Shown here one piece after another: positions 22,945-23,643 of a DNA stretch of 28,084 nt. The notes under the pieces were generated by a model, which had not been told where the DNA came from, did not search any database, and saw only the letters and a program-made list of their open reading frames with translations. Origin of the DNA: Candidatus Bathyarchaeota archaeon. Lineage in GTDB: Archaea > Thermoproteota > Bathyarchaeia > 40CM-2-53-6. The position numbers were made by a program, and so were the translations under genes. Positions within the stretch are counted from its first letter, which is position 1. The number at the start of each line of letters is the position of its first letter. The stretch lies in contig VBBA01000146.1 of assembly GCA_005888675.1 (NCBI GenBank), positions 1 to 28,084 of the forward strand, read 5' to 3'.

Positions 22945-23103
22945 ATGAAAAAAAGTAGACTAAGACTCCTCTGGCCAGCCGGTAAGAGGAGGCAATCATG
23001 CACCAAGCACGGTCCATACGACGGGCCTTATTGTTCTGTATGCTTTGAGAAAGCAATGGGATCAGAATCTGAGTCAAAGCCAGATGTTTCTAACAAGAAT
23101 TGA
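22945..23103 (+). CDS. 52-aa Zn-finger micro-protein (CxxH-x7-CxxC)
   Basis: Not in the ORF track. Manual translation: MKKSRLRLLWPAGKRRQSCTKHGPYDGPYCSVCFEKAMGSESESKPDVSNKN. It fits cleanly between guaB and the HEAT gene. Confidence 0.6.
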   Translation: MKKSRLRLLWPAGKRRQSCTKHGPYDGPYCSVCFEKAMGSESESKPDVSNKN

Positions 23104-23133: not shown

Positions 23134-23643
23134 ATGCTACAAGTGGAGACAAGTTCTAGGTTGAAGGATGCGGTTGATTATTCGAAGGACTTTCAGATTC
23201 TGGAGAAGATGGAGTGGGCATTTTCCAAAAGGGACGTAAACCATTTCCGAAATGTATTGGAGAGTCGACCGAGCCTATTCTTGAGAGTGCACGCGGTGTG
23301 CATGCTAGCAGATTTAAAAGACGAAGGAGCAGTGTCACCATTAGCAAAGGTCCTGCGGGAGGATGCAAGTCCTCTTGTTAGGCATGAAGCTGCTTTCGTT
23401 CTGGGCCAGCTGGGATTTAAATCGGCAGTACCAGCATTGATCGAAGCCATGGAGCAGGACGACAGCGTCCTTGTTCGGCATGAGTCGGCCGTGGCGTTGG
23501 GGTCAATTGGGGACGAGCGGGCGAGGTCAGGGCTTCAGAAAGCGGCACAGGATTTGGACGAAGACGTCCGATACTCAGCTGAGATCGCCTTGGCAGACCT
23601 AGCGTTTCTCAAGCATCTTAGATCGCGAACCCAAAGGACCTGA
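23134..23643 (+). CDS. HEAT/PBS-lyase-repeat protein with two His-Glu motifs (half deoxyhypusine-hydroxylase-like)
   Basis: LVRHEAAFVLGQLG and LVRHESAVALGSIG repeats. Confidence 0.85.
   Translation: MLQVETSSRLKDAVDYSKDFQILEKMEWAFSKRDVNHFRNVLESRPSLFLRVHAVCMLADLKDEGAVSPLAKVLREDASPLVRHEAAFVLGQLGFKSAVPALIEAMEQDDSVLVRHESAVALGSIGDERARSGLQKAAQDLDEDVRYSAEIALADLAFLKHLRSRTQRT

Follow-up and report, generated by a model that had tools for sequence, protein, structure and literature searches.

A half-size homologue of deoxyhypusine hydroxylase in soil Bathyarchaeia and ammonia-oxidizing archaea: a candidate homodimeric enzyme of hypusine formation

Introduction

Hypusine on translation factor 5A is essential in eukaryotes. 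The second step of its formation is catalyzed by deoxyhypusine hydroxylase (DOHH, EC 1.14.99.29; yeast Lia1, Drosophila Nero; human structures 4D4Z and 4D50), a eukaryotic enzyme of ~300 amino acids (aa) with two linked lobes, each built from four E-Z type HEAT repeats. Each lobe carries two His-Glu motifs, placed in its second and third repeats and 32-33 residues apart, with a Gly seven residues past each His. The same type of repeat (Pfam families HEAT_PBS and HEAT_2) is present in CpcE/CpcF, NblB, MTH187 and alphaRep proteins; PBS-lyase-type HEAT proteins and alphaReps are, however, open solenoids, whereas the two lobes of DOHH form a closed arrangement. According to the hypusine literature (papers of 2016 and 2020), archaea possess deoxyhypusine synthase (DHS) but no known homologue of DOHH, although hypusine is reported in Sulfolobus, Thermoproteus, Pyrodictium and Acidianus. 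Here we describe a half-size DOHH-like gene (23134..23643, + strand) in a stretch of 28,084 nucleotides from a Candidatus Bathyarchaeota archaeon (assembly GCA_005888675.1, contig VBBA01000146.1, positions 1 to 28,084). This whole stretch is called the window below, and the product of the gene, a protein of 169 aa, the window protein. The source is a metagenome-assembled genome (MAG) of a soil Bathyarchaeia, 1.86 Mb in size and 81% complete.

An earlier interpretation made from the letters of the window alone (the sequence-only reading) had proposed this gene as a candidate for the missing archaeal DOHH and had suggested that a homodimer could rebuild the diiron site. Its statement that no archaeal DOHH had been identified agrees with the papers mentioned above, and a targeted full-text literature search found no paper describing one. 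Yet many relatives of the window protein are already named "deoxyhypusine monooxygenase" in IMG, a name given automatically and presumably stemming from a KEGG orthology assignment, which tempers the value of the finding.

Results

Homology to DOHH

The gene is an intact open reading frame (ORF) starting with ATG. Its product contains the motifs RHEAAFVLGQL (residues 83-93; codons of H84-E85 at 23383..23388, + strand) and RHESAVALGSI (residues 115-125; codons of H116-E117 at 23479..23484, + strand), the two His-Glu pairs being 32 residues apart. Coordinates and motifs are exactly those described in the sequence-only reading, and the eukaryotic motifs that it quoted (RHEVGYVLGQL and RHECAEALGAI) are approximately right: the fetched eukaryotic DOHHs have KHEVAYVLGQ and RHEAAEALGA in the first lobe, and RHEVAYVLGQ and RHEAAEALGS in the second one.

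The window protein was modelled with AlphaFold2 as a single sequence, with a mean predicted local distance difference test score (pLDDT) of 80. The model shows an all-alpha HEAT fold with the four repeats typical of a DOHH lobe. A short, family-specific N-terminal helix and four helix pairs (16-31/35-43, 48-60/64-75, 80-92/96-108 and 112-125/128-140) are followed by a long C-terminal helix (143-168). The two HEAT repeats that had been counted from the sequence are real insofar as they correspond to the His-Glu-bearing third and fourth helix pairs, but the modelled protein has four repeats rather than two.

In a comparison with all PDB sequences, the best natural match of the window protein was human DOHH (4d4z, E 5.3e-27), above which only artificial consensus alphaRep proteins were ranked; natural HEAT_PBS proteins followed far behind (MTH187, E 1.5e-5; CpcE, E 3e-4). 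Structure comparison gave the same picture: Foldseek ranked 4d4z first in the PDB, and the 30 best matches in Swiss-Prot were all DOHHs, aligned over one lobe. The identity of the window protein to either DOHH lobe is 31-42%. High similarity to CpcE/CpcF, NblB, MTH187 and alphaRep at the level of single repeats is due to the common repeat type. Pfam recognizes only the generic families HEAT_2, HEAT_PBS and HEAT in the window protein, and the NCBIfam models for the phycobilisome-related proteins match far below their equivalog cut-offs (NblB, 41.5 versus 300 bits; CpcE, 31.5 versus 330 bits; CpcF, 28.6 versus 220 bits).

HEAT_PBS repeats are so common that an exhaustive search of representative proteins gave ~48,000 matches at E <= 0.001. 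The result was dominated by very long multi-repeat HEAT proteins, which outrank true relatives because their scores are summed over many repeats, and yielded only a tandem relative, P0164 (see below), and generic repeats that served as outgroup and controls. P0164 itself, used as a query, retrieved half-size relatives first and then mostly eukaryotic DOHHs and ~280-aa proteins with four His-Glu motifs. The window protein is genuinely and specifically homologous to one lobe of DOHH and not a generic HEAT protein, and the half-size DOHH likeness seen in the sequence-only reading is borne out by the PDB ranking, by Foldseek and by the tree presented below. What it lacks in comparison with DOHH is the second lobe: one chain has one lobe and two His-Glu motifs instead of two lobes and four motifs. 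A two-iron site would therefore need a homodimer.

Conservation of the His-Glu motifs and terminal helices

Unlike the family of the window protein, the sampled generic HEAT_PBS proteins do not possess paired His-Glu motifs. Of 120 family members, 119 have the spaced pair; among 146 generic long HEAT proteins taken from the representative search it does not occur at all, and only one of their 1581 repeats has His-Glu at the corresponding position. In an alignment of 22 family members, H84, E85, G91, H116, E117 and G123 are invariant, and the same six columns are invariant in a second alignment that includes the tandem relative, the DPANN-type forms (the ~280-aa proteins) and eukaryotic DOHHs. 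The mean column identity in the 22-member alignment is 67% across phylum-level distances. Both terminal helices are conserved as well. In the N-terminal one (residues 14-23; 23173..23202, + strand), S17, D19, F20 and L23 are nearly invariant, and in the C-terminal one (residues 144-161; 23563..23616, + strand), D144, V145, R146, S148, A149, A152, L156 and F158 are invariant. Most generic HEAT repeats do not reach these helices in the tree alignment.

Foldseek aligned residues 33-160 of the model with residues 156-284 of human DOHH, i.e. with an offset of 123-124. On this basis, H84/E85 correspond to human H207/E208 (H56/E57 in the first lobe), H116/E117 to H240/E241 (H89/E90 in the first lobe), and G91 to G214. 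Human H207, E208, G214, H240 and E241 are iron ligands and substrate-binding residues according to mutagenesis and structural work; with these roles, the window protein has the ligand His/Glu as well as the substrate Glu/Gly at the corresponding positions. The invariance of the predicted metal ligands together with the high column identity points to a catalytic constraint on the family.

Phylogeny and two-lobe relatives

A maximum-likelihood tree was calculated from 89 lobes and 125 columns, a short alignment whose deep branches are only moderately supported. In this tree, every His-Glu lobe separates from the generic HEAT repeats with moderate support (93/73). All half-size proteins group in a single clade (97/92), whose sister group consists of the lobes of eukaryotic DOHH and of the DPANN-type proteins (99/97). 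Within the sister group, the N- and C-lobes of the DPANN-type proteins pair with each other (100/99), as do the N- and C-lobes of the eukaryotic enzymes (86/61).

The DPANN-type proteins are two-lobe proteins of ~280 aa from metagenomes (P0281, P0292, P0297, P0299, P0302, P0304, P0337), with four His-Glu motifs and a spacing of 32 residues in each lobe. One of them is named by NCBI as belonging to a Nanoarchaeota MAG. These proteins are already duplicated, group with eukaryotic DOHH and not with the half-size clade, and differ in the context of the second motif (HECLMSLG and HEGLFALG). As their lobes are each other's sisters, their duplication appears to be independent of the eukaryotic one.

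In P0164, a protein of 363 aa encoded on a Logan metagenome contig, two half-size units are naturally fused in tandem. Its halves each share 42-43% identity with the window protein, terminal helices included, and pair with each other inside the half-size clade (98/83); P0164 differs from the window protein in being a single fused chain and in having a hydrophobic N-terminus. A scan of viral contigs with P0164 gave no match. Most simply, the tree can be read as showing an ancestral single-lobe protein that was duplicated in tandem at least three times independently; alternatively, the lobes may have evolved in concert.

Predicted homodimer

Two copies of the window protein were predicted as a complex with two Fe(II) in three runs and scored against controls. 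The homodimer received a score of 0.88, compared to 0.00 for the best control. Of 30 proteins whose structures were solved as pairs of one chain, 20 reach this mark, as does one of 23 that were solved as single chains. At least 96% of the contacts are shared by the three runs, and the pLDDT of the partner copy is ~90. The homodimer envisaged in the sequence-only reading is thus also what the modelling predicts.

The predicted interface is symmetric. It is made up of the loops 48-52, 79-81 and 111-113, which precede the first helix of successive repeats, of H116, and of the helices 14-23 and 144-161. H116 lies near the two-fold axis (contacts 113-116, 113-113 and 112-112), residues 14, 16, 19-20 and 23 are in contact with 153-161 of the partner copy, and the C-terminal helix contributes residues 144, 147-148, 150-151, 153-154, 157-158 and 161. 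At its predicted dimer interface, the window protein has these conserved terminal helices instead of the inter-lobe linker of DOHH.

The model of the tandem relative P0164, whose input alignment contained eukaryotic DOHH sequences, superposes on human DOHH over both lobes, with a TM score of 0.84 (by target) and a root-mean-square deviation of 3.9 Å over ~297 columns, whereas straight alphaRep solenoids reach a TM score of at most 0.5 in the same comparison. Two copies of the window protein probably pair to rebuild a two-iron site, and the natural tandem fusion gives independent support for such dimerization.

A further locus (L100:1213-2410) carries two different half-size His-Glu paralogues, of 161 and 204 aa, side by side in divergent orientation. 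This pair suggests a heterodimeric variant. Note that the contig is a mirror-image palindrome, probably an assembly artefact.

Links to the hypusine pathway

The window genome possesses an aIF5A-DHS operon, in which the two genes overlap by 4 nucleotides (G000:C219:2-1005; L102). The loop of its aIF5A reads KPGKHGSAK. This aIF5A was missed by Pfam PF01287 and found by TIGR00037, so that the blank of PF01287 is a problem of sensitivity. A fragment of a second DHS gene is located on contig C296. Furthermore, the genome encodes subunit I of a haem-copper oxidase; the organism can therefore use O2, which is consistent with an O2-requiring enzyme.

The half-size gene thus co-occurs with DHS and with an IF5A substrate carrying the GKHG loop in its own genome, and in relatives it can stand next to DHS. 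In three Nitrososphaeraceae loci (L041, L056, L060), a DHS gene in the same orientation lies ~190 bp downstream of the half-size gene. In genome G192, whose half-size protein is only ~45% identical to that of this group, a DHS paralogue is divergent at a distance of 76 bp and a second DHS gene follows. In four genomes of one genus (g44), DHS is located ~5 kb from the half-size gene, and in genome G025 an aspartate kinase gene and a three-gene molybdenum-hydroxylase cluster stand between the two. In the Bathyarchaeia and Nitrososphaeria genomes checked (G001-G369), the two DHS paralogues are diverged, and their genes are often adjacent and divergent. Two DHS genes are present with or without the half-size gene; the two-DHS state does not track it, and the presence of DHS is therefore not discriminating.

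The tandem relative is part of a compact hypusination-type cluster that includes agmatine-to-putrescine genes. On its contig (L099:2857-9092; Logan SRR21363124_14; GC content ~40%), an IF5A-like gene is divergent from a run of genes for DHS, a PLP-dependent decarboxylase, N-carbamoylputrescine amidase, agmatine deiminase and the tandem DOHH-like protein. The IF5A-like product consists of an acidic extension and the N-terminal domain only, and its loop KAGKHGG clearly corresponds to the hypusination loop. A gamma-butyrobetaine-dioxygenase-like gene adjoins this cluster.

Distribution in archaea

Relatives of the window protein with 67-75% identity come from soil Bathyarchaeia MAGs, and those with 42-53% identity from Nitrososphaerota (Nitrososphaera, Nitrosocosmicus, Nitrosocaldus, Nitrosopumilales). 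In a census of ~400 Thermoproteota genomes, each at least 80% complete, 75 genomes had a match at E <= 1e-15: 59 of 61 in a Nitrososphaeria ammonia-oxidizer family (f16), 10 of 16 in a second family (f23), five genomes in families that were not itemized (named f38, f58 and f59 in the records), and the genome of the window itself. The single-copy and near-universal presence of the gene in the ammonia-oxidizer family fits a housekeeping role. No match at this threshold was found in the 28 other itemized families, several of them with 23-27 genomes and some belonging to the order and the class of the window organism, and the genome of Sulfolobus acidocaldarius, taken as a control, gave no HEAT_2 or HEAT_PBS match at all.

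A relative with 79% identity (P0012) is labelled by NCBI as belonging to the bacterium "Candidatus Binatus sp.". Its contig of 1.1 kb is probably mis-binned, since the distribution is otherwise archaeal.

Other neighbouring genes

A micro-ORF for a zinc-knuckle protein of 52 aa (22945..23103, + strand) ends 30 nucleotides upstream of the DOHH-like gene and is probably co-transcribed with it. Homologues precede the half-size gene, in the same orientation, at 17 of 19 loci of soil Bathyarchaeia, and none was found beside the half-size copies of Nitrososphaerota. In the conserved core, C-[ST]-K-H-G-x-Y-x-G-P-Y-C-x-x-C-[YF]-E, the K-H-G recalls the G-K-H-G of the hypusination loop; its His is probably a zinc ligand. 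The genes flanking the DOHH-like gene in the window (guaB and those for S-adenosylhomocysteine hydrolase, an M24 peptidase, tRNA-splicing endonuclease and glycerol-1-phosphate dehydrogenase) are not conserved neighbours. Other conserved neighbours, namely Trm5/Taw2 and Trm61-type tRNA methyltransferases in Bathyarchaeia as well as a 187-aa protein, TatA/TatC and PurP in Nitrososphaerota, give no more than a loose hint. The 187-aa protein matches no Pfam family; its gene is a divergent neighbour ~200 bp upstream in 37 Nitrososphaerota loci (e.g., L039:5387-5947, - strand), with TatA/TatC and PurP beyond it.

Discussion

In our judgement, the results make it rather likely that the window protein acts on aIF5A as a homodimeric deoxyhypusine hydroxylase with a two-iron centre. 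The gene encodes an unduplicated, single-lobe homologue of DOHH, two copies of which would associate head-to-head about a two-fold axis. Each copy would supply one iron site composed of H84, H116 and E117 (two His and one Glu, the type of site present in human DOHH), as well as the substrate-anchoring E85 and the glycines G91 and G123. The dimer would in this way rebuild the O2-activating two-iron centre formed between the covalently linked lobes of eukaryotic DOHH, and would hydroxylate the deoxyhypusine placed by DHS on the conserved lysine of aIF5A (KPGKHGSAK), yielding hypusine. That the protein binds iron, dimerizes inside the cell and carries out this reaction on this substrate is our inference from sequences and models.

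Several points weigh against this interpretation. The dimer may have been predicted in part because the model had learnt the pseudo-symmetric structure of human DOHH, and the superposition of P0164 is to be read with the eukaryotic sequences in its input alignment in mind. Hypusine is not known to have been looked for in the aIF5A of Nitrososphaeria or Bathyarchaeia. Hypusine-containing archaea do not need the family, as checked for Sulfolobus acidocaldarius only; archaeal hypusine can therefore form in another way, and the window protein could have another substrate. All checked genomes of Bathyarchaeia and Nitrososphaeria but one, which has a single DHS gene, possess two DHS paralogues. As for gene order, most half-size copies of Nitrososphaerota are not adjacent to DHS, the gene adjoins neither DHS nor aIF5A in the window itself, and its sole conserved neighbour in Bathyarchaeia is the unexplained zinc-knuckle micro-ORF.

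As the main alternative, the protein may be a homodimeric, DOHH-like two-iron oxygenase that acts on something other than deoxyhypusine in aIF5A, e.g. on another aminobutylated protein, on the product of the second DHS, or on a free polyamine. With two DHS paralogues in nearly every genome, a second DHS-type product may exist; the truncated IF5A-like protein with its acidic extension encoded beside P0164 shows that this clade has non-canonical substrates; the zinc-knuckle protein encoded next to the gene in Bathyarchaeia contains C-[ST]-K-H-G; and Sulfolobus has hypusine without having the family. However, the residues needed in human DOHH for binding eIF5A with deoxyhypusine (both Glu of a lobe and the Gly seven residues past the first His) are all conserved, and the genes linked to the family, DHS and a protein with the GKHG loop, represent the hypusine pathway itself. 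Moreover, no DOHH substrate other than deoxyhypusine-containing IF5A is known in any organism. We therefore regard a different substrate as unlikely, though as an alternative to be taken seriously.

It is unlikely that the protein is a non-catalytic HEAT protein (a scaffold, a chaperone, a PBS-lyase-like adaptor or a metal binder) whose likeness to DOHH merely reflects the ancestry of the repeats. The assignment to generic HEAT families by Pfam, the weak NCBIfam matches to NblB, CpcE and CpcF, and the ~48,000 proteins found in the representative search would be expected for such a protein. Yet the matches to NblB and CpcE are far under their cut-offs, and phycobilisomes do not occur in archaea. 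The His-Glu pair, invariant in the family, is all but missing from generic repeats, and the tree places the family with DOHH, apart from these repeats. A purely structural role is also made unlikely by the invariance of the predicted metal ligands and by the mean column identity of 67%, both suggestive of catalytic constraint. Finally, the view of the sequence-only reading that this is the missing DOHH of the hypusine-containing crenarchaea can hardly be upheld: although Sulfolobus, Thermoproteus, Pyrodictium and Acidianus contain hypusine without a known DOHH and belong to the same GTDB phylum as this archaeal family, the gene was not found in Sulfolobus acidocaldarius or, at E <= 1e-15, in most sampled Thermoproteota families, and it is therefore not the general archaeal DOHH.

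If the window protein is a homodimeric DOHH, as we favour, its relationship to the two-lobe enzymes may be extended to a broader scenario, which is plausible enough to be put forward, albeit tentatively. The half-size protein would represent the ancestral, unduplicated DOHH; aerobic mesophilic archaea (ammonia oxidizers and the soil Bathyarchaeia lineage) would make true hypusine by means of a homodimeric two-iron enzyme; the two-lobe form would have arisen by tandem duplication on at least three occasions, namely in eukaryotes, in the ~280-aa proteins of DPANN type and in the lineage of P0164; and Sulfolobales would use a different enzyme. This offers a simple route to the eukaryotic two-lobe enzyme, namely a homodimer followed by a tandem fusion. 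Hypusine in Sulfolobus would still need another explanation, and archaea would then possess two unrelated routes to hypusine. The gene predicts that true hypusine is present in ammonia-oxidizing archaea, among which cultivable carriers exist (e.g., Nitrosopumilus maritimus and Nitrososphaera viennensis), and in this aerobic lineage of soil Bathyarchaeia. It also suggests that the maturation of a translation factor is O2-dependent in aerobic archaea.

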